Positions 3,362 through 45,530 of a stretch of DNA of 64,000 bases are shown here, piece by piece. The DNA comes from a phage. The DNA lies in sequence record PZ452609.1, one strand, 5' to 3'. A program made the position numbers and the translations under genes. The notes below the pieces were generated by a model. It saw only the letters and a list, made by a program, of their open reading frames with translations. It did no database searches and was not told the origin of the DNA. Every line of letters starts with the position of its first letter. The first letter of the stretch is position 1.

Positions 3362-3469
3362 AATGACCTCAAAGTTATATTAAATTTTGTATTACATTGA
3401 GTATAAAAATAAGCTATAACACCTGACTTGTCAACAGATTTTATAGCTTATTTGGCAGATTTTTTATAA

Positions 3470-3720
3470 GGCTACTGCCATCCTTCCATACCAAACCCGA
3501 CCTTACCTCACCTTATCTTACCTTACCCCACCCTACCAGACCTCATTAAAAGACCCTCTTCAAAGACCTTTTAAAAAGGTAAGTCTCATTTTAATGTAGC
3601 TGAGACTAACTACCCATACTGTACCGCACCTGACCCGACCTGACCAGACCTAACATTACCGTGCCACACCGTACCGAACAGAACACTGCCATACCTCACA
3701 TCACTTAAAAACCCTCTTAG
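3470..3720. repeat. strand-biased C/A-rich degenerate repeat tract (ccttacc/cctgacc/ccgtacc units)
   Basis: Noncoding region between the ligase stop and the upstream minus-strand gene; almost no G on the plus strand. Confidence 0.55.
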
Positions 3721-3952
3721 AAGACTCTTAAGTGATGCTGGTGAGTACCCGTTGGTTTATGCTGCTCAGTATACTCACCAAATTTTCTATGTCAACAACT
3801 TTTTATATAAAAGTCCTGATAGCTATATGTGTTACAAAACAGAATATTGTGAACAAAACACCCATTGCAAAAGATGTGTCCAAAAGCTTACTTGCAATGT
3901 ATGACAATACAAAGACAACCAGTATAAACAGAATGACTGTACTGAACATAGT

Positions 3953-5053
3953 TTACTCATAATCCCTAATAACTAGCCCTACAGGAAACTGTAAAGAACC
4001 CTTACGAGTCATCTTCTGGAACTGAACCGTTAAAGGTTTCCCGATAAACTCATCAGGATGCTCAGCAAGGTACTGTTTCTTCTCATGAGTAGTCTTCCAT
4101 GAGACATCTACAAAGACGTTAGGAAGAGTCTCTACAACGAACTTACCATGACCACGTTTATCAGTCTTTACACCAGTCACTTTAAACTCTTCAGTGTGCA
4201 TCTTCTTGTGCTTAATCAAGAAGTATGAACGGTGACAACACTCATAGAAGGAGTCTTCAGAGATTGAACGGTACATTGCACCTTCAAACTTAACTTCAAC
4301 CCACTTATCATGAGCTTCATCAAATTCTTCCCAAGAGTTTACACGACGAGACTTAACAGGGACAACTTTACAGCCATCTCCCAAGTCATTCAATGGTGAA
4401 GTCTCAATAATATCCCTACGTTCAGGCCACGTCTTAGTGCTATCACAGATGTCATACCAGTAAAACTTAAGAAGATGTCTGTCTGGGTTGTCTTCATTTT
4501 TAATCATGGAGACAATATCTTCTAAGTCCCACCCATGAGCATAAACCTCCCCGTCAAACTCATCAACGTCTGCATGGAGTCTTAACATAGTCATAATGTC
4601 AGGTGTTAGCTCAGTAGGTATTTTATAAACAGTATTCTCACGAGAATAAGCCGTGAAACTAACTGAATCATCACCTCTTGAAATTCTACAACGGACACCA
4701 TCAAGTTTTGGTTGAGCATCAGCAGGGAACTTCAGATACTTTGCATGGCTAACCTTTGCAGCATCATGAGCAAGCTGTACACCTACCTTCTCAGTATTCT
4801 GTGCAGACTCTTTTGTGTAAGCGTAACCTTTACGGTCTACTTGTTTCTTATACTTAGCAGAAACTTCAAAGAGAGCTTGCTGTTCAGCGTTACGCTCATT
4901 CTTTTTACCGATGTTCTTAGGCTCTGCTGTGTACTCTTCAAACATCATCTTGCCATTTTCTTTACCATAGGTTGTGATAACTTTGTCACCTACAGCAACA
5001 CATGACCAGACGTTGAAGGAACCATCTTTATTTTGTTTGTACAGAATTGTCAT
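3953..5053 (-). CDS. ATP-dependent DNA ligase
   Basis: KLDGVR adenylation motif; start moved to MTILYKQ with GAGG RBS upstream. Confidence 0.8.
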   Translation of the reverse strand: MTILYKQNKDGSFNVWSCVAVGDKVITTYGKENGKMMFEEYTAEPKNIGKKNERNAEQQALFEVSAKYKKQVDRKGYAYTKESAQNTEKVGVQLAHDAAKVSHAKYLKFPADAQPKLDGVRCRISRGDDSVSFTAYSRENTVYKIPTELTPDIMTMLRLHADVDEFDGEVYAHGWDLEDIVSMIKNEDNPDRHLLKFYWYDICDSTKTWPERRDIIETSPLNDLGDGCKVVPVKSRRVNSWEEFDEAHDKWVEVKFEGAMYRSISEDSFYECCHRSYFLIKHKKMHTEEFKVTGVKTDKRGHGKFVVETLPNVFVDVSWKTTHEKKQYLAEHPDEFIGKPLTVQFQKMTRKGSLQFPVGLVIRDYE

Positions 5054-5258
5054 TTTTAACCTCTGAGTGATACCAAGTGTCACAAGCATTACATGCGTAA
5101 AGCTCTAAGTCATTTTTATCTGGTTTATGGAAACAGTTTGACCCACAACGACACCGGAATAACTTACCATCAACACGAAGAATGAATGTTTCAAGCTCAC
5201 CCTCTTCTGTAAGGACGGCGTTATTATATTTGTTATCTTTATCCATTTGTACTCTCAC
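5028..5258 (-). CDS. small zinc-ribbon protein
   Basis: 76 aa, CRCGSNC..CNACD. Confidence 0.35.
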   Translation of the reverse strand: MRVQMDKDNKYNNAVLTEEGELETFILRVDGKLFRCRCGSNCFHKPDKNDLELYACNACDTWYHSEVKNDNSVQTK

Positions 5259-5402
5259 CTGTGTCAGATTTCATATAAGACCTGTCGCTAAACCTTTTAA
5301 TGAAATGTACAACGCATTTCGGTGTATCTTTTGCATCTTTGATGTGCAACCTTTCGAAACTGCGCACTGTGAAGGTTGCATCTGTCATTGTTTGCTTAGG
5401 TT

Positions 5403-5609
5403 TCATTTTCTCTTACCACCAATCTCTACGTCGATAACTTGAACATCACCAGCAACATCAAACTTATGAATGATGCTCTCAACAGTATAAGTCCAACCAT
5501 CAATGCGAACCAACTCACCTTCTCGTGGGACGATTGGATTACGTTGAGCTATGGTTGTAGTGGAGTGAACAACATCATAACGATAGGTATAGTTTACTAA
5601 TACTTCCAT
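5403..5609 (-). CDS. hypothetical protein
   Basis: Start moved to MEVLVNYT, which has a GAGG RBS. Confidence 0.35.
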   Translation of the reverse strand: MEVLVNYTYRYDVVHSTTTIAQRNPIVPREGELVRIDGWTYTVESIIHKFDVAGDVQVIDVEIGGKRK

Positions 5610-5619
5610 CGTGAAAACC

Positions 5620-5877
5620 TCACTCAATAACCGTAGTATGTGATTGACCATTTTTGCCATAGCTATAAGATGTTGTTGTTTGAGAGTTTGGGCATCTGAC
5701 AACAACAATATCTCTGCTTATAGCATCACCATTGAGTTTGTAGATTTTGCAGTCTTGCATCTCTGGAGGGAGGCTGTAAGAAGCATCTTTGTTTTCATAA
5801 GATGGGTTGCAGCCAGCCAGAAAAATTACTCCAAGTGCAACCATTGCTTTCACACAACTCTTAACCTTATTGTTCAC
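5620..5877 (-). CDS. putative lipoprotein
   Basis: Lipobox-like ..FLAGC.. after a hydrophobic N-terminus; GTG start with GAGAGG RBS. Confidence 0.45.
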   Translation of the reverse strand: MNNKVKSCVKAMVALGVIFLAGCNPSYENKDASYSLPPEMQDCKIYKLNGDAISRDIVVVRCPNSQTTTSYSYGKNGQSHTTVIE

Positions 5878-6009
5878 GATAGTCTACCTCTCTGTATGTT
5901 TTTAAATAGTGAGTGATGAGTTCTGGTAAGTCACTACGTTTAACGTTTGAACGAAGAAGTGTCCAGTCAAAACCTTTACCAACCCTTCCCCAGAGACTGT
6001 ACATTTTCT

Positions 6010-6243
6010 TCATAGCAACTCCAGAATATCAATACGTTCGCCTTTGAGTACTCCAGTACGGTCTTTTGCAATCTTACCGTCAACGATAAGGATGTGTGTA
6101 GACCTTAAAGCGTCGTTGTTAAAGGTTTTTACGAACTTGCTAGGCATGACTACAATGGACATCTCCTGAATTAACTCTGGAGTGTAGCAGTTATCATGAA
6201 GTTGCTGAATAACGTCTGCAAGTGTCATTTTTGATGTCTCCAA
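6010..6243 (-). CDS. hypothetical protein
   Basis: 77-aa ORF. Confidence 0.35.
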   Translation of the reverse strand: METSKMTLADVIQQLHDNCYTPELIQEMSIVVMPSKFVKTFNNDALRSTHILIVDGKIAKDRTGVLKGERIDILELL

Positions 6244-15063: not shown

Positions 15064-16104
15064 ATGGAGAAGTACACATTAACAAAGCTTCCCGATTCAG
15101 TTACACATGTCTTTATTGACTCTGACAGTATTGCCTATAAAGGTGCTTGTGTAGTTGAGAAAGCAAAGTATAAATACGTTAATAAACTCACAGCAGAAGA
15201 GTCTGAACCATTTGATAATGCGAAAGATGCTGCAAGATGGTTAGCAGACCAGAGAATCCTTGTGGAAGAGCTTGGCCTGACATTTGAGGAAGATGAATGG
15301 GAAAGACAAACTTGGAAAGAAGCTAAGAGTGAAAAAGAAGCTATCATGGCTACTCAACAGGTGCTTCAGGAATGGCTTAAGATTGTTGGTAAAGAAAGAA
15401 CTTGGGTAGGTTATTTAACAGAGAAGGGTGTGCATAAACATAAAGACATTAAAGGTCTTGAGCACCAATATCAAGGTAATCGTAAAGATGCTGTCACACC
15501 AACACACTTAGTCGCTTGTCGTGAATACCTTTTATCCAGACCAGAGTTCAAGCTCTTAAAGGGGGGCTTCGAAGCCGATTCAATCGTAATTGCTAAAGCT
15601 GAAAAGATGGGTAAGAAGGCTGCTCTTATGAGTATTGACAAAGACCTTCGACAAGCTGAAGGAACTTATTGTATTGATATGACTTATGAAAAATCACCAC
15701 TAATCTTTATTGCTGATAATAATGTTGGTGATATCTGGGATTGTCCTATCAAATCAAAACCAAAAGCTGCAAAAACAGTTGGTGTAGGTTTTAAATTCTT
15801 GTGCTATCAGGCTGTTGCTGGAGATAATGCAGACAACTACTTCGGACTTAAAGGTGCTGGTAAAGTGGCTGTGATGAATGCTTTAGATGGTAAAGAGACC
15901 TACAAAGAGTGTCTTGATGCTATCTATGAACTCTATGCTAAAAAAGACTCTTACACCTATGTATCATGGGATGGACAGACAGTTACAAAGACACCGTTAG
16001 AGCTAATGGAACAGCATTTCTGGATAGCTTATCAAGAAAGAAATCCAAAAGATAATTTCTCTTTTAAGAAATATAATTGGGAGCCGTGTATGAATGAAGA
16101 TTAA
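15064..16104 (+). CDS. 5'-3' exonuclease / flap endonuclease
   Basis: N-terminal VFIDSDSIAY and H3TH-like GLKGAGKVAV motifs. Confidence 0.5.
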   Translation: MEKYTLTKLPDSVTHVFIDSDSIAYKGACVVEKAKYKYVNKLTAEESEPFDNAKDAARWLADQRILVEELGLTFEEDEWERQTWKEAKSEKEAIMATQQVLQEWLKIVGKERTWVGYLTEKGVHKHKDIKGLEHQYQGNRKDAVTPTHLVACREYLLSRPEFKLLKGGFEADSIVIAKAEKMGKKAALMSIDKDLRQAEGTYCIDMTYEKSPLIFIADNNVGDIWDCPIKSKPKAAKTVGVGFKFLCYQAVAGDNADNYFGLKGAGKVAVMNALDGKETYKECLDAIYELYAKKDSYTYVSWDGQTVTKTPLELMEQHFWIAYQERNPKDNFSFKKYNWEPCMNED

Positions 16105-16591
16105 AGGATTTGGCAATTGCCCCACCTATGGTCATTGGGTGTCTTTATGTGGGGAAGTTGACCCCACTAAACATTTTGGTTTTGTCTATTTAGTACACTG
16201 TAAGAAAACCGGACAATATTATATCGGAAAGAAACAGCTTAATAGTGTGACTAAAAGAAAAGTTGCTGGCAAGACTCGGAAGAAGGTAGTCACTAAGGAG
16301 AGTGATTGGATGACTTATGAAACTTCTTCTGAGTATATTAAAAAAGATATTGAGAGCTTTGGAAAAGAATTTTTTGACTTTTACATTATTCAGACCTACT
16401 ACACAAAAGGTGGCCTAGTCTATGGTGAAGCAAATCTTCAACATAAATTCGATGTAATGACAAAAAGGATTGACTCTAAGCTCAGACTCTTCTACAATGC
16501 CAATATTGCAGCAATTAAGTTTATTACTAAAGAAACTTATGAAGATGCTGAAAAAAGAATCCATAAGGTAATGAAAGCAAACTGTGCTTGA
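16094..16591 (+). CDS. putative GIY-YIG endonuclease
   Basis: GFVYLV..GQYYIGKK matches GIY-(10 aa)-YIG spacing. Confidence 0.4.
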   Translation: MKIKGFGNCPTYGHWVSLCGEVDPTKHFGFVYLVHCKKTGQYYIGKKQLNSVTKRKVAGKTRKKVVTKESDWMTYETSSEYIKKDIESFGKEFFDFYIIQTYYTKGGLVYGEANLQHKFDVMTKRIDSKLRLFYNANIAAIKFITKETYEDAEKRIHKVMKANCA

Positions 16592-16597
16592 TAACTA

Positions 16598-16861
16598 TTG
16601 AGAGAGAATAAAATGTTTAATAAAAGCAAAGCTGTGAGTCATGTAGCAAAAGTTGACAGTAAGATTGAAGAACTTGAGCGCATTCTTGCAAATGCTAGAG
16701 AGTCGATAATTAAAGAAGTTGAAGCTGTTGAATCTCAAATGCAGCACCTAATGCTTAAACGCCAAGAGCTACGTGAACATCTGGAATATATTGAAACACG
16801 AGAGCTAAAGGTTAACAGATATTTTAAGGAGTCCAAATGTTTAACTCAAGAGAATCAGTAA
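16598..16861 (+). CDS. hypothetical coiled-coil protein
   Basis: 87-aa ORF. Confidence 0.3.
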   Translation: MRENKMFNKSKAVSHVAKVDSKIEELERILANARESIIKEVEAVESQMQHLMLKRQELREHLEYIETRELKVNRYFKESKCLTQENQ

Positions 16862-17592
16862 AAAACTGGAATCTTCGTTGCGGAAAAACTCAAAAACAAC
16901 CATACAGTAATGAGTATTGGGAGTCTTTGAAATCTCAATCTCTGTGTATGCTTGAAGAAGCAAAAGAGCTTGTAAAAGCGATTGAAGAGAAAGACCCCAT
17001 TGAGACACTGGATGCTCAGGCAGATTTGCAATATGTTCTTGACGGTTTGATTTACCTGTCACAACATGACCATAACGGTGCTATGAAAGCTGTTTGCCAT
17101 AATAATGACCTGAAATACACAGACGATTATGAAGAAGCTTTAAAACGTCTTGCAGATATTGAGAAGCGTACTGGTCAAGATTGTATTGTCAGAATGTCAG
17201 TAGTTGATGGTAAAGAGTGGTACGCAATTGTTCGTGTAGCCGATGGGAAGATTATGAAGCAATCGAATCTCCCAAAAGTACAGCTTGGTGAATACATTGT
17301 AGAACTTGAAAGCCAAGAACTTTTTGTGGTAGTATCTGAGACATGCGTTATCTGCAAAGGTATTGTAGGTAGCTTAAAGGATTTGGGTGTAGATGGTTTT
17401 GTAGAAGTTAATCCAATTACCTCTAAAGCAGATAAAGATTTCTGTAAAGAGAACGGACTATGGATTGCAGATATTGTCTACTATGATGGTGAGCAGTTCC
17501 ATGTAACCTCATACCCGAAACTGAATTATGATGCTAATAACCTGAAGTGCTGGTTAAAAGGGGTTGGTTATAATGGATTCACAGAACATTAA
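16837..17592 (+). CDS. hypothetical protein
   Basis: 251-aa ORF. Confidence 0.45.
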   Translation: MFNSRESVKNWNLRCGKTQKQPYSNEYWESLKSQSLCMLEEAKELVKAIEEKDPIETLDAQADLQYVLDGLIYLSQHDHNGAMKAVCHNNDLKYTDDYEEALKRLADIEKRTGQDCIVRMSVVDGKEWYAIVRVADGKIMKQSNLPKVQLGEYIVELESQELFVVVSETCVICKGIVGSLKDLGVDGFVEVNPITSKADKDFCKENGLWIADIVYYDGEQFHVTSYPKLNYDANNLKCWLKGVGYNGFTEH

Positions 17593-26771: not shown

Positions 26772-26822
26772 ACAGATACTATAAGGGGACTGTAAAGGTT
26801 CCCTTTTTATTTTGGAGGTAAA

Positions 26823-27338
26823 ATGTATCTGTCAAACCTGAAACGTTCGGTTGCAATGTCAGTTCTAAGACTCAGCTTTGATGAGCGTCAAGAGTTTATA
26901 GACTCCCACAAATATGACCCTTCAAATTCTAATCACATGGTTCTTTGGAATCGTGGTAACTTACGTGAAAGAGCACTTGTCCGTTATTACCCACACTACA
27001 CAATAGATAACCTGTATGAATGGTGTGTTGTGAAGAACACCATTGCAACACTGAACAATCTTTGCAGGTATACGGGTAAGCAAATATTTACATTAGGTCA
27101 TCACAAACCTGTTACAAAAGGTGGTGAACATCACTGTGCAAACTGGTTTATCCAAACTAAAGCTGATAACCAGAAGCAAGGAGATAGCCTCCTAAGTATC
27201 CCTAAGATGACCTATGAAGAGCAAGAGAAATATATCAAAAATAATATGCCAGATGTGCTTGACAACAACTATACAGATTTGGCAATATCTCTCCTGTTGA
27301 AGTTCGAGACAGTTTATAGGGCAACTTATAATGACTAA
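26823..27338 (+). CDS. putative HNH endonuclease
   Basis: GHHKPVTKGGEHHCANW..N HNH-like motif. Confidence 0.4.
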   Translation: MYLSNLKRSVAMSVLRLSFDERQEFIDSHKYDPSNSNHMVLWNRGNLRERALVRYYPHYTIDNLYEWCVVKNTIATLNNLCRYTGKQIFTLGHHKPVTKGGEHHCANWFIQTKADNQKQGDSLLSIPKMTYEEQEKYIKNNMPDVLDNNYTDLAISLLLKFETVYRATYND

Positions 27339-27609
27339 AGAAAAGTGGGAGATTTTACCATTAGTCAGTGAAGGAGGTAATGGTTGTGAAATGTACATGA
27401 TACGTGGTCATGTTCCAGAGCCAATTGCACTTGAGATGGTAAACAACTTTACAGATGGTTCTTACAAAGACTTAGGCGAACCAACTGTCAAGCAACAATG
27501 GGTTAAACCTGTACCAGACAGCACAGGTAACTGTAGTGTACTTTATCACGTTGTAGACCCTGCAAAATGCAAATCTGCAATGGCAGTAACAAACGTAACT
27601 TTTGATTGA
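27331..27609 (+). CDS. hypothetical protein
   Basis: 92-aa ORF. Confidence 0.35.
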   Translation: MTKEKWEILPLVSEGGNGCEMYMIRGHVPEPIALEMVNNFTDGSYKDLGEPTVKQQWVKPVPDSTGNCSVLYHVVDPAKCKSAMAVTNVTFD

Positions 27610-27620
27610 GAGAGAAAACT

Positions 27621-28502
27621 ATGAAAACATCTATCCGTGTTACAGTTCATTCACCAACTAAAGGGACTCATGAAGAAGAGTTTAACATCGTCCAATTCCC
27701 TTCTGGTGAGATTGGTGGACACTTTTCGCCAGAGTTTGTTGATTTTACTGCTTATGCAGCATCATCCATCAACAATGTGATTATGATTGTAAAAGGTTAT
27801 GACAAGGACACATTGTTTGCTGTGGCACTTGCTAAAGAAGCAATTGATGATTTAATTCCTCATGATTATGCTTTAAAGACTGTCATCTTTTACTACTTAC
27901 CAAATGCACGATATGACCGTCACATGTTTAAAGGTGACGCAGCAGCTTTAAAGGTTTTTGCTAAACAGATTAATGCAATGGGATTTGGCGCAGTCTGTGC
28001 AGTTGACCCTCACAGCTATGTACCAGATAACCTGTTTAACTGCTTCCAGAGTATTCCTCAAAAGGAGATTGCAGTCCACTATGCAAATGACCCACTGGTT
28101 GATTACTTAGTAGCCCCAGATGCAGGTGCTGCTAAGAAGGTTGCAGAGACCGCTAAAGAGGTGGATAAACCATATATCACAATGTCTAAGGTGCGTAACC
28201 TTAAGACTGGTGAAATTACTGGTATGCGAATCCTTGATGATGTTGATTTGACAGATAAAACCGTCATGATTCTGGATGATATCTGTGATGGTGGTCGAAC
28301 CTTCATAGAAGCAGCTAAGCATCTCCGTGAAGCAGGTACAAAACGTGTGGAACTCTATGTAACACATGGTATCTTCTCTAAAGATGTTGAAAACCTTCTT
28401 GACAATGGTATTGACCATATCTACACTACAAACTCTTTAGGGGAAGCTAAAGACCGTGGCTTAACACATTATGGTCAAGTTACTGTAGCAAACCTTGATT
28501 GA
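27621..28502 (+). CDS. ribose-phosphate pyrophosphokinase (Prs)-like enzyme; candidate ADP-ribose pyrophosphokinase
   Basis: PRPP-binding-loop-like ILDDICDGGRT; ATG start with GAGAGAG RBS; immediately upstream of the Nampt-like gene. Confidence 0.7.
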   Translation: MKTSIRVTVHSPTKGTHEEEFNIVQFPSGEIGGHFSPEFVDFTAYAASSINNVIMIVKGYDKDTLFAVALAKEAIDDLIPHDYALKTVIFYYLPNARYDRHMFKGDAAALKVFAKQINAMGFGAVCAVDPHSYVPDNLFNCFQSIPQKEIAVHYANDPLVDYLVAPDAGAAKKVAETAKEVDKPYITMSKVRNLKTGEITGMRILDDVDLTDKTVMILDDICDGGRTFIEAAKHLREAGTKRVELYVTHGIFSKDVENLLDNGIDHIYTTNSLGEAKDRGLTHYGQVTVANLD

Positions 28503-28511
28503 AACTTTATA

Positions 28512-28532
28512 GGGGCTTAAAAGCCCCATTTT
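28512..28532 (+). terminator. rho-independent terminator
   Basis: ggggcttaaaagcccc then atttt. Confidence 0.5.
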
Positions 28533-28547
28533 GAGAGAGATTAAAAG

Positions 28548-30329
28548 ATGACTAAATCACTTTATGCAGTACCAGCAGGTTTAAATGCAGATGCTTACAA
28601 ATCTGGTCATGTTTACCAGTATCCTAGTGCAACAGAATACTTGATGTTCAACCTGACACCACGTAGTGATAAATGGTTTAACAGCCCTTTAGCAATTGAC
28701 GGTGTAGTGGCTTTTGGTATTCAACGTTTTGTTAAAGATTACTTGATAGACCACTGGAATGCCACTTTCTTTGAACGTGATAAAAAAGAAGCCATTGATG
28801 AAATCTTAGAAGTCATGAATGGTGTTCTGGGTAAAGATGCTATCGGTCGAGAGCATTGGGAAGCACTTCACGACTTAGGTTATCTACCAGTTGAAGTATA
28901 CGCTGTAGAAGAAGGCACAGTTGTTCCAATGCGTGTCCCGATGATTGTCTTTCAGAACACTGTTTCAGGTTTTCATTGGGTAGCAGGTTATCTGGAAGAT
29001 GCTTTCTCTGCTGAAATTTGGAAGGCTTGCACCATTGCAACTATTGCATTGCATTACAAACGCATCTGTAAGAAGTGGGCTGACCTTACTTGTGACAATG
29101 ACTTACATTTACCTTATCAGTGCCATGATTTTGCTATGCGTGGTATGTCCGGCTTTACTGATGACGCATTTAACGCTGTAGGTCACTTAACCAGCTTTAA
29201 AGGGACTGATAGCTTCCCTGCTGTATACACGGCTAAACGAATCTATGGACAGTCCTACCCAATCTCTGATATTGGTAGCTCTGTACCAGCCACTGAGCAC
29301 TCTGTAATGTGTGCAAACATTGCTTGGGAAGGTGGTAATGAGTTGATTGAAGAAGAAAGACGCTTTAAAGGTGAGTTACAAACCTTCCGTCGTTTCTTAA
29401 CAGAAACTTACCCAACAGGTATTGCAAGTATTGTTTCAGATACTTATAACTTCTGGAGAACTGTGTCAGAAATCTTACCAGCACTTCGTAAAGAAATTAT
29501 GGAACGTGATGGCAAACTGGTAATTCGCCCTGACTCTGGAGACCCTGTACATATTGTCACAGGTTATAAAGCAATCCACTTAGAATGTGCTAAGAAGGCT
29601 TATTACGAGCACCTAAGCAAGCTGGAAGTCAGTGACACAATGTTGAATGCTGTTCTTAACATGAAGCTTGAAAACATCAACTATGGTATTGCTGGATGGC
29701 TACTGTCAGAAGGCTACGAAATGGTTGTTGACAGAGAAGACTTTGAAGTTGCTGATACAGTGATGTTGAAGAACGCTTATATGGTTGGTTCTGCAAACGT
29801 TGTAACACGCCCTGTAGCAGAGATTGATGGAGCTATTAAGACCTTGTATAACATCTTTGGAGGAACTATCAACTCTAAAGGTTTTAAGGTACTGGATGAG
29901 CACATTGGACTTATCTATGGCGACTCTATCACGTTGGAACGTGCAAACGAAATCCTGAAGCGTCTGTATGAAATGGGGTTTGCAAGCTCTAACGTGGTGT
30001 TTGGTGTAGGCTCTTACACTTACCAGTACATGACTCGTGACACCTTTGCATTTGCTGTCAAAGCAACTCTTGCAAGCATTGGTGGCAAAGAGATTATGCT
30101 TGCAAAAGACCCTAAAACAGATAGTGGTGTTAAGAAATCTGCCTTTGGTGGTGTAGCACCTATGTGGGATGGTGAGAATTTGAAAGCTGTAGATGGCTAT
30201 GGATTCCAGAGCTTTGCAGATGCACTTGAACATCCAGCTTGTGCTTTACGTTTAGTCTTTAGCGACTCTGAGCAGTACGGTTACACAACTCTTGGTGATA
30301 TTCGAAATAATATTGACAAGCAGCTTTAA
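28548..30329 (+). CDS. nicotinamide phosphoribosyltransferase (Nampt/NadV) family enzyme
   Basis: N-terminal NADAYKSGHVYQYP matches the Nampt DSYKxxHxxQYP signature; 593 aa. Confidence 0.8.
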   Translation: MTKSLYAVPAGLNADAYKSGHVYQYPSATEYLMFNLTPRSDKWFNSPLAIDGVVAFGIQRFVKDYLIDHWNATFFERDKKEAIDEILEVMNGVLGKDAIGREHWEALHDLGYLPVEVYAVEEGTVVPMRVPMIVFQNTVSGFHWVAGYLEDAFSAEIWKACTIATIALHYKRICKKWADLTCDNDLHLPYQCHDFAMRGMSGFTDDAFNAVGHLTSFKGTDSFPAVYTAKRIYGQSYPISDIGSSVPATEHSVMCANIAWEGGNELIEEERRFKGELQTFRRFLTETYPTGIASIVSDTYNFWRTVSEILPALRKEIMERDGKLVIRPDSGDPVHIVTGYKAIHLECAKKAYYEHLSKLEVSDTMLNAVLNMKLENINYGIAGWLLSEGYEMVVDREDFEVADTVMLKNAYMVGSANVVTRPVAEIDGAIKTLYNIFGGTINSKGFKVLDEHIGLIYGDSITLERANEILKRLYEMGFASSNVVFGVGSYTYQYMTRDTFAFAVKATLASIGGKEIMLAKDPKTDSGVKKSAFGGVAPMWDGENLKAVDGYGFQSFADALEHPACALRLVFSDSEQYGYTTLGDIRNNIDKQL

Positions 30330-30344
30330 AAGTATATGATAAGA

Positions 30345-30365
30345 GGCTCCTACGGGAGCCTTTTT
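30345..30365 (+). terminator. rho-independent terminator
   Basis: ggctcc-tacg-ggagcc then ttttt. Confidence 0.6.
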
Positions 30366-38462: not shown

Positions 38463-39248
38463 ATGGGTATTGTAAAAATAATTAATGGTGATATCTTTGC
38501 CGCATTTGATAAAGGTAAGTTTGACATCATCGGTCACGGTTGCAACTGTATGAATTTAATGGGTGCAGGTATCGCTGACAAGATTTCTAAACTTTACCCA
38601 AAAGCATATGAGACCGATACAGAAGTTTATCTGTATGCAGGTGGTATAGGACACAAACCCTGTGAAAATTTACTGGGTAATTTCTCTGTAGCACGTTTAA
38701 AACAAGGTCGTATAGCTAACCTTTACACTCAGCTTAAGACTGGTAAAGATGCCCGATACAGTGCTTTAGAGTCATCTTTGAAACAGCTTAACAGATACTG
38801 TGAAGTTAATCAGTTGAAGAAGGTTGGTTTACCTATGATTGGTGCAGGTATCGGTGGACTTGACCCTCAAGCCGTCACAGTTATCATTAATCAGGTGATG
38901 AAGAGTGTAGATGTTTATCTGTATGTCTACGAAGGAGAGATGTACCACAAGTTACGCTCAGGTTGGAATAACTACTGTGAACCAGAATACTTTGCAGGTG
39001 TAGTAACGTTCAAAGATGATACAGTTACCCTCTTCAGACGAAGAAAAGGTAAGATACATCAAAGTAACCCTCCGGTTGAGAAGATGTCTCTAAGTAACGC
39101 TCTAGTTACCCACCTGTCGAAGAGCAATCACAGGATAGCCGTAACATTTGGCAGTGATGCAGATACATATATTTATGCAAGAACTGATGAGGATATCGAG
39201 ACGGTCTTCTCTTCACCAGAAGTTACCTTCTTAGACGCAAAGAACTAA
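38463..39248 (+). CDS. macro-domain protein (ADP-ribose binding/processing)
   Basis: GHGCNCMNLMGAGIA and a second GAGIGG glycine-rich motif typical of macro domains. Confidence 0.7.
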   Translation: MGIVKIINGDIFAAFDKGKFDIIGHGCNCMNLMGAGIADKISKLYPKAYETDTEVYLYAGGIGHKPCENLLGNFSVARLKQGRIANLYTQLKTGKDARYSALESSLKQLNRYCEVNQLKKVGLPMIGAGIGGLDPQAVTVIINQVMKSVDVYLYVYEGEMYHKLRSGWNNYCEPEYFAGVVTFKDDTVTLFRRRKGKIHQSNPPVEKMSLSNALVTHLSKSNHRIAVTFGSDADTYIYARTDEDIETVFSSPEVTFLDAKN

Positions 39249-39754: not shown

Positions 39755-39961
39755 ATGCTTTATAGTCGTGAATTGATGGTTACAACTAACGTTAACACAA
39801 AGGTAAAACGTTTTTACATGCAAGTATGTGGCGCATGGTCTAGAATATCAGAGGCTGACTATTGCAACTATGTAGAAACAGCTATAAACTCTAATTGCTA
39901 CCTTACAAGAAATACAAGAAAGTACATAAGACAGACAGCAGTTTATTACTACGATGCCTAA
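39755..39961 (+). CDS. small hypothetical protein (array member 1)
   Basis: Preceded by conserved leader ..ctaaactggagaatcgaaa-ATG. Confidence 0.5.
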   Translation: MLYSRELMVTTNVNTKVKRFYMQVCGAWSRISEADYCNYVETAINSNCYLTRNTRKYIRQTAVYYYDA

Positions 39962-40052
39962 TAAAGTACTTTACAAGGGGCTTAAAAGCTGATATCTTAA
40001 GCCCCAGATAAAGAGCTTTACCAAATCAACCCTTAAACTAGGAGATTCAAAA
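39962..40052 (+). promoter_or_regulatory. intergenic cassette type A (conserved-stem hairpin + conserved leader/RBS)
   Basis: taaagtactttacaaggggcttaa..ttaagccccagataaagagctttacc..ctaaactaggagattcaaaa. Confidence 0.6.
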
Positions 40053-40433
40053 ATGGCATATCGTGCACCTAAATTCATCAACAAAGACAACTTTCGCAAC
40101 GCACTGGAGAAGTCACTTGATGAGAATTTTAAAGGTAACGTTATTGTTGTTCACTCGTTTAATTTTAAGTATGATATCAATGGGAATAAAATTAACCATT
40201 ACACGGCGACAATGCTAGATGGTACTCTTTCAAGTGAAAAAGCCATTTTACATGCACTTGCTGGACGTGGTAAAAACCTGATAAGATGCGATAAGAGACG
40301 TTATCAGGGTGGCGCATATGGTTACGATGATGCTGTTTATCATCTTGAAAATATGGGCTATCAAGTAGAAAAAGCTGGAGTGTCTCAAATAATCGGTAGT
40401 GATGGTTATGTAACAATCTTCAAAATTAACTGA
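40053..40433 (+). CDS. small hypothetical protein (array member 2)
   Basis: Conserved leader with GGAG RBS. Confidence 0.5.
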   Translation: MAYRAPKFINKDNFRNALEKSLDENFKGNVIVVHSFNFKYDINGNKINHYTATMLDGTLSSEKAILHALAGRGKNLIRCDKRRYQGGAYGYDDAVYHLENMGYQVEKAGVSQIIGSDGYVTIFKIN

Positions 40434-40521
40434 TAAAGTACTTTACAAGGGGCTTATAGTTCGATAAAGTAAGCCCCAGATAAAGAGCTTTACCACTAAA
40501 TCCTAAATTGGAGATTCAAAA
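40434..40521 (+). promoter_or_regulatory. intergenic cassette type A
   Basis: Same stem as other type A copies, different loop sequence. Confidence 0.6.
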
Positions 40522-40812
40522 ATGGCTACTATCAAAAACGTTGTAATTCCTGTAAAAACTCGTGATGACGCTCGCATCATGGCGAAAAAGTTAGGCGGGA
40601 AAGTGGTTGACAACGGAAAACAATCTGCTGTAAGATGGGGTGTGAAGGCTGATAAACAGTTGAAGTTAAAAAATTCACCAATAAATCTTTTTACATGTGT
40701 AAACACTATCGGAAAGACAAATGTATACACGAAAAAGGCATATATTAGACGCGTAGCCTTAACATCTCCAATTCGTACAATGAGAGGTTATGCAAAGCTG
40801 AAAATTAACTGA
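40522..40812 (+). CDS. small hypothetical protein (array member 3)
   Basis: Conserved leader with GGAG RBS. Confidence 0.5.
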   Translation: MATIKNVVIPVKTRDDARIMAKKLGGKVVDNGKQSAVRWGVKADKQLKLKNSPINLFTCVNTIGKTNVYTKKAYIRRVALTSPIRTMRGYAKLKIN

Positions 40813-40900
40813 TAAAGTACTTTACAAGGGGCTTAAAAGTTGGTATCTTAAGCCCCAGATAAAGAGCTTTACCACTCAATCCTAAACTGGAGATTCAAAA
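40813..40900 (+). promoter_or_regulatory. intergenic cassette type A
   Basis: Same stem, different loop. Confidence 0.6.
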
Positions 40901-41197
40901 ATGAAATTATCAAATAAAGTTCGTGAAAATCTAAGCAAATTACTCAACAAAATTGATTTCATTGAAACATCAAGAAATAGCCATGATGTTATGGAATGGT
41001 TACACGGCAAAATAAAAGGTCGTCGTGTAGTGATTTGCTTATGGAATAGTTGCAGGGAGTATAAAAAACCTGTATTGCAAGTTAATATCTATGATGATAC
41101 TCTTAAAAGTCCTGTCAAATCTAAAAGCGATTTACTAGATTCTTATGAGATAACTGTAAATGGCAAAGTATCACGTAAAGAGGAAGCACCATGTTAA
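40901..41197 (+). CDS. small hypothetical protein (array member 4)
   Basis: Conserved leader with GGAG RBS. Confidence 0.5.
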   Translation: MKLSNKVRENLSKLLNKIDFIETSRNSHDVMEWLHGKIKGRRVVICLWNSCREYKKPVLQVNIYDDTLKSPVKSKSDLLDSYEITVNGKVSRKEEAPC

Positions 41198-41523
41198 TGA
41201 CTGGTATCACTGCAATCATTGCCATTTTCGCGCTCTATAAGGCATATAAAGCCTATAATCTAGCAAATAAGGCAATCACACAACAGGTTAGCAATAGCCT
41301 TGTAATGAGCTTTCTAGAGCGGTTGAGCGATGAACAATTAAAGCGGTTAGAAATGAGCTTCAGATTCAGGGCGAGAACTTATCAAATCAGCGACATTTTC
41401 AAAGATGATTTTCAATTAGTCGATGATTATAATTCTCTGATAAATGCTTTAAATATTAGTGACTTAAAAGACTATCATACTGTAATTGTTCAAGAGTTGA
41501 GCAAACGAAAACAAAACTGTTGA
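41191..41523 (+). CDS. small hypothetical protein (array member 5)
   Basis: Overlapping start with upstream ORF; N-terminal hydrophobic segment. Confidence 0.4.
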   Translation: MLMTGITAIIAIFALYKAYKAYNLANKAITQQVSNSLVMSFLERLSDEQLKRLEMSFRFRARTYQISDIFKDDFQLVDDYNSLINALNISDLKDYHTVIVQELSKRKQNC

Positions 41524-41612
41524 CACTGATTTTTAGATAGATTAAATTACACATCAACGGGGAGGCAATAAACACCCCACTAAATAAAGTCCTTAAACTA
41601 GGAGATTCTAAA
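41524..41612 (+). promoter_or_regulatory. intergenic cassette type B (TTGACA promoter-like box + GGGGAGG hairpin + conserved leader)
   Basis: ttgacactgatttttagatagattaaattacacatcaacggggagg..cccc..taaagtccttaaactaggagattc. Confidence 0.6.
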
Positions 41613-41885
41613 ATGTATACTACTAACAACGGTCGCACTTTAAATGTCACTCTACGTCACTATGTAGACGGTGTGATGCACTTTGAGGATTTACAGGCTG
41701 AGCAACATATCTTAGATTGGCAAGTCGCAGGACTCCAAAAAACTGCTACCGGATACGGCAAAAAGATTCCAACTAGCTGGAAAGTATACTATGAAGGACG
41801 TTTGCGCAGAATTTATCAGGATGTATGTAGCAATAGCACATCAAGTTACATCATAGTAAAAGGTAAAAAACTGCATTTAGTATAA
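41613..41885 (+). CDS. small hypothetical protein (array member 6)
   Basis: Conserved leader with GGAG RBS. Confidence 0.5.
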   Translation: MYTTNNGRTLNVTLRHYVDGVMHFEDLQAEQHILDWQVAGLQKTATGYGKKIPTSWKVYYEGRLRRIYQDVCSNSTSSYIIVKGKKLHLV

Positions 41886-41970
41886 AGTACTTTACAGGGG
41901 GCTTATTAGTCTGTACAGTAAGCCCCAGATAAAGAGCTTTACCACTCAATCCTAAATTGGAGATTCTAAA
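41886..41970 (+). promoter_or_regulatory. intergenic cassette type A
   Basis: Same stem, different loop. Confidence 0.6.
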
Positions 41971-42375
41971 ATGGCTATTAATAATCGTGAGTTGTCAATC
42001 TTAAAAGCACGTTTAACCGTTAATCGAATCAATGTTATTACATCATCAGCACCGGATGAAACATTGCACAACATTATCGGAAAGATTCAAAGCGTTATCT
42101 TAGACGTTGAAAACGTAAAAAACTCATTGGCTGACGTTGCAGCAGGTATCACGCTAGACGGTGCACAATATGAAATGGTCGACATGTTAGGCAAATCTAA
42201 GGTAATGAATAAAGAGTTAGACTTGAAAATGTTTAGATTTGCCGTGAAAGTGTGGCTATCTGTTGAGTATGATGCTAATTTTGCAATCGCTGATTTCTTT
42301 GCCACTTGGTTACAACGTAATTTGGCAAATCATGACTTTCGTGACATCTGCGACGCAATTTATGCAGAACTCTAA
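41971..42375 (+). CDS. small hypothetical protein (array member 7)
   Basis: Conserved leader with GGAG RBS. Confidence 0.5.
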   Translation: MAINNRELSILKARLTVNRINVITSSAPDETLHNIIGKIQSVILDVENVKNSLADVAAGITLDGAQYEMVDMLGKSKVMNKELDLKMFRFAVKVWLSVEYDANFAIADFFATWLQRNLANHDFRDICDAIYAEL

Positions 42376-42476
42376 AAATTTTATTGACACTGATTTTTAG
42401 ATAGATTAAATTACACATCAACGGGGAGGGAATGACCTTCCCCACTAAGTAAAGTCCTTAAACTAGGAGATTCAAA
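42376..42476 (+). promoter_or_regulatory. intergenic cassette type B
   Basis: Near-identical to the 41524 copy including the TTGACA box. Confidence 0.6.
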
Positions 42477-42674
42477 ATGGCTATTATCAACGGTTTAACC
42501 ATTGAAACCACGCACATCAAAGACATTAAAGTTGGTGATGTAGTTCTTTCCCACGGCGTAGAAAAAACAGTCACTGCAAAGGATATCAAAGATGATTCTT
42601 TCATGGGTAGAACTCTCTTCGGTGATTCTTATTGCTTAGGTTATCTTGCAGTTTTAAAAGTTGTCAAAAATTAA
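42477..42674 (+). CDS. small hypothetical protein (array member 8)
   Basis: Conserved leader with GGAG RBS. Confidence 0.45.
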   Translation: MAIINGLTIETTHIKDIKVGDVVLSHGVEKTVTAKDIKDDSFMGRTLFGDSYCLGYLAVLKVVKN

Positions 42675-42767
42675 CTGATAAAGTACTTTACAAGGGGCTT
42701 ATAGTTCGATAAAGTAAGCCCCAGATAAAGAGCTTTACCACTAAATCCTTAAACTAGGAGATTCAAA
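42675..42767 (+). promoter_or_regulatory. intergenic cassette type A
   Basis: Same stem, different loop. Confidence 0.6.
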
Positions 42768-43310
42768 ATGAAATGCTTTCACGGTACTACTCAAGAAAAC
42801 TTTATCAACCTGATTAATAACGGTGATAAACCATCAGGTGTATGGAATTGTTCGGATATGGACGGCAATTTTTACGTGTACCCAGAAAATAAACTCTATG
42901 GTGATGATGAGGAAGAGATAGCATCGGAAGGTATCCAGCAAGCTCTAGGAAATGCCACTATCACGGCAGCTTTTCAGATGAAAACTCAAAATATTGTTAT
43001 CTTAGAACTTGACATTCCAGAGGATGAGCTAAATGATGATTATTCTTGTGATAACATGTCAAATATAGCAAGCTTTACAGAGTACTTTGATGTAAATTGG
43101 ATTAAAAAGGTCTATACAACAGAGTTCAACGCTATGTATTCACCTTTTTGTCTCCCTTCACTGGATAACCCAAATTTAAATTATCTTGATGAAACATTGG
43201 AGCTACTTGCTAAAAGTATCCAACAATCCGACAGTATTCAGGTTTTTTGTGACATCATGGATACACTGACAGAAAACATTGTAGAGAGTGATTTAAAGGT
43301 CTTTTTCTAA
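42768..43310 (+). CDS. hypothetical protein (array member 9)
   Basis: Conserved leader with GGAG RBS. Confidence 0.5.
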   Translation: MKCFHGTTQENFINLINNGDKPSGVWNCSDMDGNFYVYPENKLYGDDEEEIASEGIQQALGNATITAAFQMKTQNIVILELDIPEDELNDDYSCDNMSNIASFTEYFDVNWIKKVYTTEFNAMYSPFCLPSLDNPNLNYLDETLELLAKSIQQSDSIQVFCDIMDTLTENIVESDLKVFF

Positions 43311-43376
43311 AAACCTATACATTCACCTTATAAACACTGATTAACCCCTTACAGGGGCTTTTAGAGGGCTTAAATC

Positions 43377-43610
43377 ATGCTTACAACCATTTATCTCATC
43401 CTTTCCATTTGTAACGGCCATTCATGTGACTTTAAAGGGCTTGAAGAGTTTACAGGAAGTAAAGAAAATGCTATTCAAGTTTGCCAGATAGCAAGACAAG
43501 ACTACCCCGCCAGTGATGATATACAATGTTACTTTAAGACAGAAGATGACGAAGGAATCTATTTCGACAGTGTCGATGGTCAATATGAAATTATCATTGA
43601 AAAAGACTAG
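43377..43610 (+). CDS. small hypothetical protein (array member 10)
   Basis: 77-aa ORF after a hairpin+T-run. Confidence 0.4.
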   Translation: MLTTIYLILSICNGHSCDFKGLEEFTGSKENAIQVCQIARQDYPASDDIQCYFKTEDDEGIYFDSVDGQYEIIIEKD

Positions 43611-43703
43611 ACAAGCCTGATAAAAGTCTGTAAATTATCAATCAACGGGGAGGGAATGACCTTCCCCACTAAGTAAAGTCCTTAAACTAGGAGATTCCAA
43701 AAA
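43611..43703 (+). promoter_or_regulatory. intergenic cassette type B
   Basis: caacggggagggaatgaccttccccactaagtaaagtccttaaactaggagattc. Confidence 0.6.
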
Positions 43704-43952
43704 ATGTATACTAAAACTCAACTAAAAAACATGGTTAGCAATGGCTTAATGGATGAAGTCTATAAAGAGTGTAGACGCTACGGGGAAATTAAGGATAAGA
43801 CTAGTTATGAGTATACCCACACAATAGACTTTAAAACCAATGAGAAGAGGACTGACCTTGTTACTGTAGTAGTGATTGAGTATAAACGAATTATTTGGAC
43901 CTTTGAGCTAGTAAAAGGTGAGTGCACAGAGATAGAATATAAAGACGCTTAA
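43704..43952 (+). CDS. small hypothetical protein (array member 11)
   Basis: Conserved leader with GGAG RBS. Confidence 0.5.
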   Translation: MYTKTQLKNMVSNGLMDEVYKECRRYGEIKDKTSYEYTHTIDFKTNEKRTDLVTVVVIEYKRIIWTFELVKGECTEIEYKDA

Positions 43953-44037
43953 AGTACTTTACATGGGGCTTATTAGTCTGTATAGTAAGCCCCAGATAAA
44001 GAGCTTTACCACTCAATCCTAAACTGGAGATTCTAAA
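43953..44037 (+). promoter_or_regulatory. intergenic cassette type A
   Basis: Same stem, different loop. Confidence 0.6.
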
Positions 44038-44379
44038 ATGGCTTATGTAACCGTAATTACCGATAAAGCTGGCTCATCTTGGTCAACTCAAGTAAGTGAT
44101 AAGATGTCACCTATGCAGTGCCTAAAATACTTTGAACAGTGGAACAAAGGCGAGGGTGTAAGCCCCTTTCAAGTGATGCAAATCATCCATACAGATAACG
44201 AAGGGAATAAAACGACCTTGAACAGTGAATACTACGCAAGCCGTTTTGAAACGAGAAGTAAAACAATGAAGCTTTTACGTGAATCCGGTTATGCACATAT
44301 TGCCGCTTTAATCTGGGATGACCTGCTAAAAAGTCAGCGTATCAGCTATGTAAAGCCTGAAAAAATCTTCATAAGTTAA
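44038..44379 (+). CDS. small hypothetical protein (array member 12)
   Basis: Conserved leader with GGAG RBS. Confidence 0.5.
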   Translation: MAYVTVITDKAGSSWSTQVSDKMSPMQCLKYFEQWNKGEGVSPFQVMQIIHTDNEGNKTTLNSEYYASRFETRSKTMKLLRESGYAHIAALIWDDLLKSQRISYVKPEKIFIS

Positions 44380-44519
44380 TCAATAACTTACAAAAAACTT
44401 TTAAAAAAGTGTTGACAATACCCATTGACATTGGTAACTTTGTTCGAGGGGGTTATCTAAAAGGGATTCACTTAATAGATTCTTTATAGATAAACTTAAA
44501 AAATTGCTTGCAAAGGCAA

Positions 44520-44600
44520 ATCAAAACAAGTATAGTACTAAACAACGGGGAGGGAATGACCTTCCCCACTAAGTAAAGTCCTTAAACTAGGAGATTCAAA
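44520..44600 (+). promoter_or_regulatory. intergenic cassette type B
   Basis: Same core; preceded by a double-TTGACA region at about 44410-44440. Confidence 0.55.
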
Positions 44601-45131
44601 ATGAACAAGTTTCAAGCTATCAACTACATTCGCTCATCTAACGTTATGACTAAACCCGTTAAAGATACCTTCGAATTTCGTTGCAACGGTGTACACTTTG
44701 CAACTATCACTAAATCAGAAAACGGGGCTTATTATATACATCGTCGTAATGTTTCTACTGTTGTAGTATCTCACTTTATGCAAGCTGTAGCAGAACTGTT
44801 ACCGCTATTCTTAGGTATTTACTTAGATGAGTGTAAAAACGTTCGCAACCACGTTAAAGACCTTTTAAATGGTTATAAAATGGCTTATGAACGTTCTATC
44901 AAGAATCTTAACAAGTTCTATAAAGCCCCTGAAAACACCGTATCAATAGCTTATGATGTAAGCGGTGAAATGGTCAACCTCTCCAATGTAGAACAAATTG
45001 GCCTTTATGATTTACGTCCTAGCGGTTATTCTAAGACTCTCGGTGAAGGCTTATCCTTCAATATCAAGAACTTAGAAAAAACTTTAAAAGATATTGAAAA
45101 AGATATTGACGAGACAATCAAAAGTCTGTAA
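44601..45131 (+). CDS. hypothetical protein (array member 13)
   Basis: Conserved leader with GGAG RBS. Confidence 0.5.
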   Translation: MNKFQAINYIRSSNVMTKPVKDTFEFRCNGVHFATITKSENGAYYIHRRNVSTVVVSHFMQAVAELLPLFLGIYLDECKNVRNHVKDLLNGYKMAYERSIKNLNKFYKAPENTVSIAYDVSGEMVNLSNVEQIGLYDLRPSGYSKTLGEGLSFNIKNLEKTLKDIEKDIDETIKSL

Positions 45132-45198
45132 ATTGTCAATCAACGGGGAGGGATTAACCTTCCCACTAAGTAAAGTCCTTAAACTAGGAGATTCAAAA
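45132..45198 (+). promoter_or_regulatory. intergenic cassette type B
   Basis: Same core hairpin and leader. Confidence 0.6.
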
Positions 45199-45462
45199 AT
45201 GGAACACGTAGAATTAACCACACTATTGCAGATTGCAACTGACAAAGAAGACGTAGCGTTGTTTCACCGTATCGAAAGTGATTTGTTCAATGGTGAAATC
45301 ATTAAAGAATCTTACGAAGTTGTCGGATTCAAAGATGGTAAAGCATTTGGCTTTTTTGACCTCGACAAAAGCAAAGCGGTTACAATGTACGATGTTCTAT
45401 CTTGTGAAATTCTGACAAAATACAACGAAAAAAGGCTTGCAACCTACGCCAATATGCAGTAA
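45199..45462 (+). CDS. small hypothetical protein (array member 14)
   Basis: Start moved to MEHVELTT directly after the conserved leader; the track ORF begins upstream inside the cassette. Confidence 0.45.
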   Translation: MEHVELTTLLQIATDKEDVALFHRIESDLFNGEIIKESYEVVGFKDGKAFGFFDLDKSKAVTMYDVLSCEILTKYNEKRLATYANMQ

Positions 45463-45530
45463 ATTACTAAACAACGGGGAGGGAATGACCTTCCCCACTA
45501 AATAAAGTCCTAAACTGGAGATTCTAAATT
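45463..45530 (+). promoter_or_regulatory. intergenic cassette type B
   Basis: Same core hairpin and leader. Confidence 0.6.

Follow-up and report, generated by a model that had tools for sequence, protein, structure and literature searches.

NARP1, the closest described counterpart of the locus analysed here, is a phage pathway that was defined by deletion of genes 79-80 in Bas63 (Escherichia phage JohannRWettstein, genus Felixounavirus); its two enzymes are called Adps and Namat (Osterman et al. 2024, bioRxiv 10.1101/2024.02.11.579819). Bas63 without genes 79-80 is ~20-fold more sensitive to SIR2-HerA, a defence system that depletes nicotinamide adenine dinucleotide (NAD+), and mass spectrometry revealed ADP-ribose pyrophosphate (ADPR-PP) only in wild-type Bas63 infections of SIR2-HerA cells; NARP1 rescue was also tested in a host without pncC and nadR, and the products were concluded not to be nicotinamide mononucleotide (NMN) (bioRxiv 10.1101/2024.02.11.579819). 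Restoration of NAD+ and overcoming of NAD+-depleting defence in infection have been shown for Bas63, Fado and heterologous operons of SPbetaL1, ICP1 and Paenibacillus, and 97% of the proteins in the published Adps clade have a Namat homolog in their immediate vicinity. The locus in question is an adjacent pair of genes, encoding a Prs-like and a Nampt-family protein, at positions 27,621 to 30,329 of a phage DNA of 64,000 nucleotides (sequence record PZ452609.1; this whole stretch is hereafter called the window).

The determinants of Adps have been described for ICP1, whose enzyme carries a catalytic beta-hairpin lysine (Lys185), contacts ADP-ribose (ADPR) through F18, R87, F92, H121, D161, D212 and D213, and binds the ATP donor by a remodelled PP loop (C215-S220) with a Phe lid (F221), both kept among Adps homologs, while the C-terminal alpha11-alpha12 filament/regulatory helices of Prs have been lost (PMC13586617). 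The catalytic beta-hairpin lysine of SPbetaL1 Adps is K162. Namat of SPbetaL1 has a catalytic core in common with Nampt (D13, Y15, F189, R192, D215, the catalytic histidine, R306 and D308), and it is made specific for ADPR-PP by a 'selectivity clamp' (PMC12774641). The clamp comprises a helix (SCH) with the motif GS-X-phi1-X-phi2-X-phi3-TRD, where X is aromatic and phi3 is usually Asn or Val, and a loop (SCL), where stacking is provided either by an Arg at the third position or by the residue after a Lys or Tyr, Bas63 being the example with Lys (PMC12774641).

A predicted NARP1 operon in PZ452609.1

As judged from its sequence, the locus is very probably a functional NARP1 operon of a Felixounavirus. 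Both genes are present, they are orthologous to and syntenic with those of Bas63, the catalytic and specificity residues of their products are kept, and a search of the window and of the remaining sequence of its close relative, typing phage 1, gave no NMN adenylyltransferase (NMNAT); the reactions of the two enzymes and a counter-defence effect in this phage are predicted by homology. An earlier note on this DNA had described a Prs-like gene with a DDICDGGRT loop directly upstream of a 593-residue Nampt-family gene, and both open reading frames (ORFs) are confirmed on the + strand (Table 1). It had also given the Nampt-family protein a DSYKxxHxxQYP-type N-terminus; the sequence ADAYKSGHVYQYP keeps the pattern D-x-Y-K-x-x-H-x-x-Q-Y-P, with Ala in place of the Ser.

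Both family assignments are far above chance. The Prs-like ORF matches Pribosyltran and Pribosyl_synth in Pfam, TIGR01251 in NCBIfam (6.3e-35) and phrog_619 in PHROGs ('ribose-phosphate pyrophosphokinase', 2.3e-96), and the Nampt-like ORF matches NAPRTase (7.5e-35) and NAMPT_N in Pfam, NF006629 in NCBIfam (1.5e-140) and phrog_448 in PHROGs ('nicotinamide phosphoribosyl transferase', 1.7e-202). A competing explanation is classical salvage, in which the Prs-like protein would convert ribose-5-phosphate into phosphoribosyl pyrophosphate (PRPP), the Nampt-like protein would combine PRPP with nicotinamide to form NMN, and an NMNAT of the host or the phage would finish NAD+, by the logic of NARP2 of the KVP40 type; the GenBank names 'ribose-phosphate pyrophosphokinase' and 'nicotinate/nicotinamide phosphoribosyltransferase' agree with it.

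Relationship to Bas63 and to the typing phages

Over 4 kb around the module, the sequence is 100% identical to that of E. coli O157 typing phages 1 (KP869100) and 15 (KP869113), both members of Felixounavirus; a further ~200 Felix-O1-like phages, of Escherichia, Salmonella, Shigella and Citrobacter, are 92-97% identical to it. The gene order in the window is that of Bas63 (NrdG, five small ORFs, adps, namat, three small ORFs, rIIA and rIIB), and the two phages agree in the lengths of both genes (293 and 593 aa) and of the 45-bp spacer. Namat aligns without gaps to Bas63_0080 (583/593 residues identical, 98%), as does Adps to Bas63_0079 (227/293, 77%). Typing phage 1 encodes proteins identical to both: KP869100_00096, the counterpart of the window Adps, is in Table S1 of Osterman et al. 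('Adps homologs', with 'Namat within 10 genes: Yes'), and KP869100_00095, the counterpart of the window Namat, is in their Namat table (S2), marked 'Adps-associated'. The NARP1 system identified here is therefore already known, the result being a correct re-identification of a catalogued system; the locus adds nothing new to NARP1, because the Felix-O1-like phages are the discovery lineage and the identical genes of typing phage 1 had already been catalogued.

By sequence comparison, the window as a whole is assigned to Felixounavirus as a close relative of the typing phages. In blastn, the identity to typing phage 1 reaches 99.7% over 6431-46599 and is 83-98%, with indels, elsewhere; around 3450-6230 it is 83-87% with indels, and for other segments typing phage 15 or 8 is the nearest. 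A whole-window blastn search of the phage collection gave no end-to-end match to any one record, and the window is a mosaic of the ordinary Felixounavirus kind.

The Prs-like protein

The Prs-like protein was aligned with the Adps of Bas63, ICP1 and PJN02 (a Bacillus phage), six further Adps from the published table and E. coli Prs, and its residues were mapped onto the ICP1 sequence from GenBank, because a sequence search of the PDB copy used found no Adps chain and returned canonical Prs structures only (best 4twb, 1e-17). Residues F26, R97, H131, D167, K190, D219 and D220 of the window protein align with ICP1 F18, R87, H121, D161, K185, D212 and D213, and the PP loop C222-D-G-G-R-T227 with its lid F228 aligns with ICP1 C215-S220 and F221. 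The catalytic beta-hairpin lysine is present, K190 in the segment MSKVRNLKTGEI being the residue aligned with ICP1 K185; six of the seven ADPR acceptor-groove residues of the ICP1 set are kept, and all mapped functional residues are identical to those of Bas63. E. coli Prs has DDMIDTGGTL at the columns of the loop, i.e. I-D-T-G-G-T followed by a Leu lid, and in the alignment the window protein stops ~20 residues short of the E. coli Prs C-terminus and lacks the alpha11-alpha12 region.

The profile scores of the protein resemble those of Adps. With the NF002320 model, whose cutoff is 297 bits, the scores are 533 bits for E. coli Prs, 101 for Bas63 Adps, 90 for the window protein, 80 for ICP1 Adps and 65 for PJN02 Adps, and against NF002095 the window protein scores 103 bits vs a cutoff of 296; with phmmer it scores 47.6 bits against E. 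coli Prs. All Prs-specific NCBIfam models (equivalog or narrower subfamily) are failed by the window protein by a wide margin, as they are by validated Adps, which argues against classical salvage; only the broad subfamily model TIGR01251 is passed (120.6 bits vs a cutoff of 113), and this pass, together with that of NF006629 by Namat, is the part of the profile evidence that agrees with salvage. The Prs-like protein of the window is thus predicted to behave as an Adps and not as a canonical Prs.

The Nampt-family protein

The catalytic residues D15, Y17, F195, R198, D221, H251, R327 and D329 are all present in the Nampt-family protein. NCBIfam was tried as a discriminator between Namat and Nampt and rejected, and the SCH/SCL motifs were used for this purpose, because NF006629 is passed by Namats and NARP2-type Nampts alike and separates neither. 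The whole SCH motif is identical to that of Bas63, including Met at phi3, and W43, which follows K42 in the clamp loop, is the predicted adenine-stacking residue. At the SCH columns, the Nampts of PVA8 (KVP40-like) and phT4A read GGGLLQQLDRD and GGGLLQEVTRD, respectively; the ADPR-PP clamp motif, found in the window protein and missing from Nampts, is a further point against classical salvage. The window protein is ~30% identical to the Nampts of PVA8 and phT4A vs 46-48% to the Namats of ICP1 and PJN02, and a phage-wide tblastn search with it gave Namat-type matches of 34-47% identity (E <= 1e-65) and Nampt-type matches of 27-30% identity (E ~1e-23 to 1e-29). The nearest solved structures are 9w5w and 9w5x (E ~6e-128), and the numbering of 9w5x agrees with that of SPbetaL1 Namat in PMC12774641.

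Two insertions, of 77 and ~17 aa (Table 1), are common to the window and Bas63, are missing from SPbetaL1-type and ICP1 Namat and have no domain match; these Felixounavirus insertions are not discussed in the Namat structure paper (PMC12774641). The lengths of matches in other phages suggest that the site of the 77-aa insertion varies in length among Namats.

Search for an NMN adenylyltransferase

The earlier note had seen no NMNAT gene nearby, and the same holds across the entire window and the remaining sequence of typing phage 1. The tests were a profile scan with Pfam and phmmer searches with E. coli NadD and NadR as queries. No NMNAT or other cytidylyltransferase-type domain (PF01467) was found in a Pfam scan of 30 window ORFs of 92-471 aa without obvious function. 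The searches with NadD and NadR, run with filters off, covered all 622 six-frame ORFs with a minimum length of 50 aa in the window and the remaining regions of typing phage 1; the lowest E was ~0.9, a negative result from which a very divergent NMNAT could escape, many small ORFs being without a Pfam match. In the same search E. coli Prs, used as a positive control, finds Adps at 5.5e-14. Those parts of typing phage 1 that lie beyond the window hold mainly structural genes, plus dfrA and thyA. No NMNAT gene is adjacent to the Nampt gene in the 9.4-kb locus of the KVP40-like phage PVA8.

Proposed pathway and alternative explanations

If the locus functions as NARP1, NAD+-depleting defence systems (SIR2-HerA/Nezha, type I Thoeris, DSR or Kongming) would cleave NAD+ into ADP-ribose and nicotinamide, and Adps would move the beta-gamma pyrophosphate of ATP to the distal-ribose O1'' of ADP-ribose, with the assistance of K190 and the PP loop, yielding ADPR-PP and AMP. 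Namat would then use Nampt-type chemistry, in which nicotinamide displaces pyrophosphate, to form NAD+ directly, without an NMN intermediate, while its clamp residues Y490, Y494 and W43 would hold the adenine. The restored NAD+ pool would allow the phage to escape from abortive infection.

Several points weigh against this reading. There is residual doubt about a functional NARP1 because the first ~150 codons of adps represent an allele other than that of Bas63: residues 1-90 share 59% and residues 91-180 share 74% amino acid identity with the tested Bas63 protein, and the nucleotide identity is 59-75% over 27621-28070 vs 89-98% from 28071 to the end of namat, which places a mosaic boundary inside adps. 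Two such N-terminal alleles circulate in Felixounavirus, the TP1/wV8/KhF3 type, found in the window, and the FelixO1/Bas63 type, and megablast matches to FelixO1-type phages begin at query base 291; because of this difference in allele, the orthology of the N-terminal domain of Adps is looser. The adenine contact F92 of ICP1 is replaced by Met (M102) in the window Adps, and Met is also found in Bas63. The in vitro biochemistry comes from the SPbetaL1 and ICP1 homologs, which are ~30-48% identical, and not from Felixounavirus proteins. SPbetaL1 Namat keeps some PRPP-dependent NMN synthesis in vitro (PMC12774641), and for this reason the window Namat may possibly have a minor classical PRPP-to-NMN side activity.

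Classical salvage as the main route is nevertheless very improbable. In addition to the failed Prs-specific models and the clamp motif, the searches of the window and of the remaining sequence of typing phage 1 gave no NMNAT, KVP40-type phages carry Nampt and Nmnat and no Adps, and the Bas63 NARP1 rescue was tested in a host lacking pncC and nadR, with the conclusion that the products are not NMN (bioRxiv 10.1101/2024.02.11.579819). The preference of the earlier note for NAD+ rebuilding by Adps and Namat over classical Prs/NadV salvage is upheld by the orthology with Bas63, the catalogue listing, the profile scores, the clamp motif and the failure to find an NMNAT. It had suggested a profile comparison with characterised proteins, in which the scores of the Prs-like ORF are at the level of validated Adps and not at that of canonical Prs; grouping with canonical Prs plus a phage NMNAT, the outcome that it had named as contrary, is the opposite of what was found, namely Adps-like profile scores and no NMNAT in the sequences searched. 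The least probable reading is that both genes act as a general metabolic booster, raising the NAD+/PRPP supply in any infection with counter-defence as an incidental effect, which agrees with the nucleotide-metabolism neighbourhood (nrdA, nrdB, nrdD and nrdG upstream; thyA, dfrA, a dNMP kinase gene and a MazG-like gene elsewhere) but not with Bas63, where ADPR-PP and ADPR-cP were seen only with a defence system present and the deletion phenotype appeared on a SIR2-HerA host (bioRxiv 10.1101/2024.02.11.579819), nor with the requirement of NARP1 for free ADP-ribose, of which there is little without NAD+ cleavage.

Transcription unit and intergenic spacer

The two genes of the predicted NARP1 operon are co-oriented on the + strand and separated by a spacer of 45 bp. 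The start of adps is taken at the ATG at 27621, which is preceded by a Shine-Dalgarno-like stretch (GAGAGA, 6-11 nt 5' of the ATG); an in-frame TTG at 27606 is the adps start in the mechanical ORF list. Terminators had been claimed on both sides of the pair. The downstream one stands, being a strong hairpin (30341-30364; fold -16.6 kcal/mol, z = -3.2), whereas the terminator scan shows none directly upstream of adps, the nearest hairpin (26783-26805) sitting ~800 bp 5' of the gene.

The upstream hairpin probably forms the 5' boundary of the transcription unit. Because this hairpin is separated from adps by two small ORFs of the same orientation (26823-27338 and 27331-27609), the transcription unit probably consists of four genes, not two, with both ORFs co-transcribed with adps and namat; the stop of the second lies 11 nt ahead of the adps ATG. 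The two ORFs are kept in Bas63 as bas63_0077 and bas63_0078 and are outside NARP1 as defined by the deletion of Bas63 genes 79-80. The larger one, a 171-aa ORF with the sequence HHKPVTKGGEHHCANW, shows weak similarity to HNH endonucleases (phrog_2214, 7.5e-06).

The spacer itself contains a GC hairpin (28512-28527), which was not scored as a terminator by the scan and is possibly a weak attenuator or an RNA-stability element. In the phage pinkbiff (L016, 1206-1697), a free-standing HNH homing-endonuclease gene of 492 bp lies exactly in the adps-namat spacer, and in other Felixounaviruses the module is ~470 bp longer, probably with an HNH gene in the spacer there too. The spacer looks like a homing site between the NARP1 genes.

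Table 1. Features of the predicted NARP1 locus and of the unlinked Macro-domain gene in the window (PZ452609.1)
Feature	Position	Strand	Size or sequence	Basis and remarks
Nearest upstream terminator-like hairpin	26783..26805	+		Terminator scan; fold -11.9 kcal/mol, z = -2.3
ORF, phrog_3500	26823-27338	+	171 aa	Between upstream hairpin and adps; no Pfam match
ORF, phrog_4726 (without annotation)	27331-27609	+	92 aa	Between upstream hairpin and adps; no Pfam match
adps, ADP-ribose pyrophosphokinase (predicted), Prs-like	27621..28502	+	293 aa, 882 nt	ORF and family matches
Adps acceptor-ribose Asp pair, remodelled PP loop and lid	28275..28304	+	DDICDGGRTF, aa 219-228	Motif location, ICP1 structures
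GC hairpin in adps-namat spacer	28512..28527	+	GGGGCU-UAAA-AGCCCC, then AUUUUG	Fold -12.6 kcal/mol, z = -3.07
namat, nicotinamide ADP-ribose transferase (predicted), Nampt family	28548..30329	+	593 aa, 1782 nt	ORF and family matches
Namat clamp loop (SCL)	28662..28679	+	RSDKWF, aa 39-44	Identical to Bas63, the Lys-type example of PMC12774641
Namat insertion	29319-29369	+	~17 aa, aa 258-274	Missing from SPbetaL1 and ICP1 Namat
Namat lineage-specific insertion	29598..29828	+	77 aa, aa 351-427	HMMER alignment to 9w5w splits at 350/428; MAFFT
Namat clamp helix (SCH)	30009..30041	+	GSYTYQYMTRD, aa 488-498	Fits SCH motif of PMC12774641 with aromatic X
Intrinsic terminator closing the module	30341..30364	+	10-bp stem, 5 GC pairs, T-rich tail TAATTT	Terminator scan
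Macro-domain protein, candidate ADPR-1''-phosphate phosphatase	38463..39248	+	261 aa	Pfam Macro 1e-07; phrog_335 'phosphatase' 4e-113

An unlinked Macro-domain protein

Poa1p-like Macro proteins embedded in NARP1 operons (Adpp) dephosphorylate ADPR-1''-phosphate, the product of aRES, and the resulting NARP1-AP acts against aRES (bioRxiv 10.64898/2026.01.28.702374). No Macro gene lies inside the inter-terminator adps-namat unit of the window, the sole Macro ORF found being at 38463-39248 (Table 1). Its PHROG, phrog_335, is also that of the Macro protein encoded between adps and namat in Vibrio phage Achelous, to which it is 29% identical (E = 1e-14). Compared with nine catalogued Adpps, it is 29-35% identical to eight and 23% to that of RYC, values similar to the spread among the Adpps themselves, and it keeps the family motifs; the likeness lies in its N-terminal 155 aa, the extra C-terminal region of ~105 aa having no family match. 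The protein is 97% identical to bas63_0095 of Bas63.

The idea that the window Macro protein has its nearer relatives among the Adpps of NARP1 operons, and not in a phage without NARP1, was rejected, as it shares 38% identity with the macro protein of T2, a phage found in neither the Adps nor the Namat search, vs 29-35% with most Adpps; a specific link of this protein with NARP1 is therefore unsupported by sequence alone. A split NARP1-AP in Felixounaviruses, in which the Macro protein would turn the aRES product ADPR-1P into ADP-ribose for Adps in trans, is doubtful. Table S1 of the aRES preprint is restricted to close neighbours of NARP1 genes and has no Felixounavirus among its entries (bioRxiv 10.64898/2026.01.28.702374), so that a split arrangement has apparently not been captured. 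If such a split system existed, it would confer resistance also to RES-type NAD+ phosphorolysis despite the two-gene operon, and the ~105-aa C-terminal region would be a lineage-specific addition.

Other features of the window

Several mobile endonuclease genes are carried in the window, including that of a SegE-type GIY-YIG homing endonuclease (16094-16591, +; PF19835, 9e-28), which lies 245 bp upstream of the gene for a MazG-like pyrophosphatase (16837-17592, +; phrog_2144, Pfam PRA-PH 1e-05). A 471-aa protein containing DUF2828 (4e-29) and DUF7788 (2e-43) is encoded at 56245-57660 (+), and the annotation of typing phage 1 would place it just upstream of the tRNA gene cluster. Between 39.9 and 45.5 kb, sequences of ~100 bp are repeated between small ORFs, with off-diagonal matches of 88-100% identity among 39958-45529 in a blastn comparison of the window with typing phage 1; these repeats look like intergenic promoter or terminator cassettes of the early-gene region.

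Implications for annotation

NARP1 is an important recent discovery, in that phages rebuild NAD+ from the debris of NADase defences, and the practical value of the present locus lies in annotation, as the GenBank labels are still 'ribose-phosphate pyrophosphokinase' and 'nicotinate phosphoribosyltransferase'. The rules by which such pairs can be confidently relabelled are a CDGGRT-Phe PP loop and lost C-terminal helices for Adps, the motif GS-Ar-x-Ar-x-Ar-x-TRD (Ar represents an aromatic residue) for Namat, and no NMNAT. Correct relabelling matters for picking therapeutic or typing phages against hosts with SIR2, TIR or DSR defences. The divergent N-terminal allele of Adps and the unlinked Adpp-like Macro protein are modest leads and not discoveries.

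Comparison with known systems

E. coli Prs shares with the window Adps the fold family, the acceptor-site Arg, His and Asp and the Asp-Asp pair, but the window Adps has a remodelled PP loop and a Phe lid in place of Leu, and is without the C-terminal regulatory/filament helices. NARP2 (Nampt and Nmnat, Vibrio phage KVP40 type) likewise employs a Nampt-family enzyme and nicotinamide and counters NAD+ depletion; it has no Adps, needs Nmnat and carries GGGLLQ at the SCH columns, whereas in the window an Adps gene is adjacent, the Namat motif is present and no Nmnat was found.

The window has in common with NARP1-AP (Adps-Adpp-Namat, Vibrio phage Gary type) the genes for Adps and Namat and one for a Poa1p-like Macro protein, which falls into the PHROG of the operon-embedded Adpps. 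The Macro gene of the window, however, is ~8 kb and 16 genes downstream, not in the operon, and its product has the extra ~105-aa C-terminal region.

The NARP1 operons of SPbetaL1 and ICP1 (PMC12774641, PMC13586617; PDB 9w5w/9w5x) have the order adps then namat, as in the window, together with the catalytic Lys, Asp pair and PP-loop architecture of Adps and the catalytic core and SCH motif of Namat. They differ from it in that the identity is only ~46-48% for Namat and ~36% for Adps (vs ICP1, tblastn), the window Namat has the 77-aa and ~17-aa insertions and Lys-Trp instead of Arg in the clamp loop, and ICP1 Adps has F92 where the window has Met and the PP loop CDGAAS where the window has CDGGRT. 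The closest system is NARP1 of Bas63, from which the window locus is set apart by the adps 5' allele, of TP1/wV8 type vs FelixO1/Bas63 type, with no other notable difference, and with which it shares the genus, the position between nrdG and rIIA/rIIB and all mapped catalytic and specificity residues.

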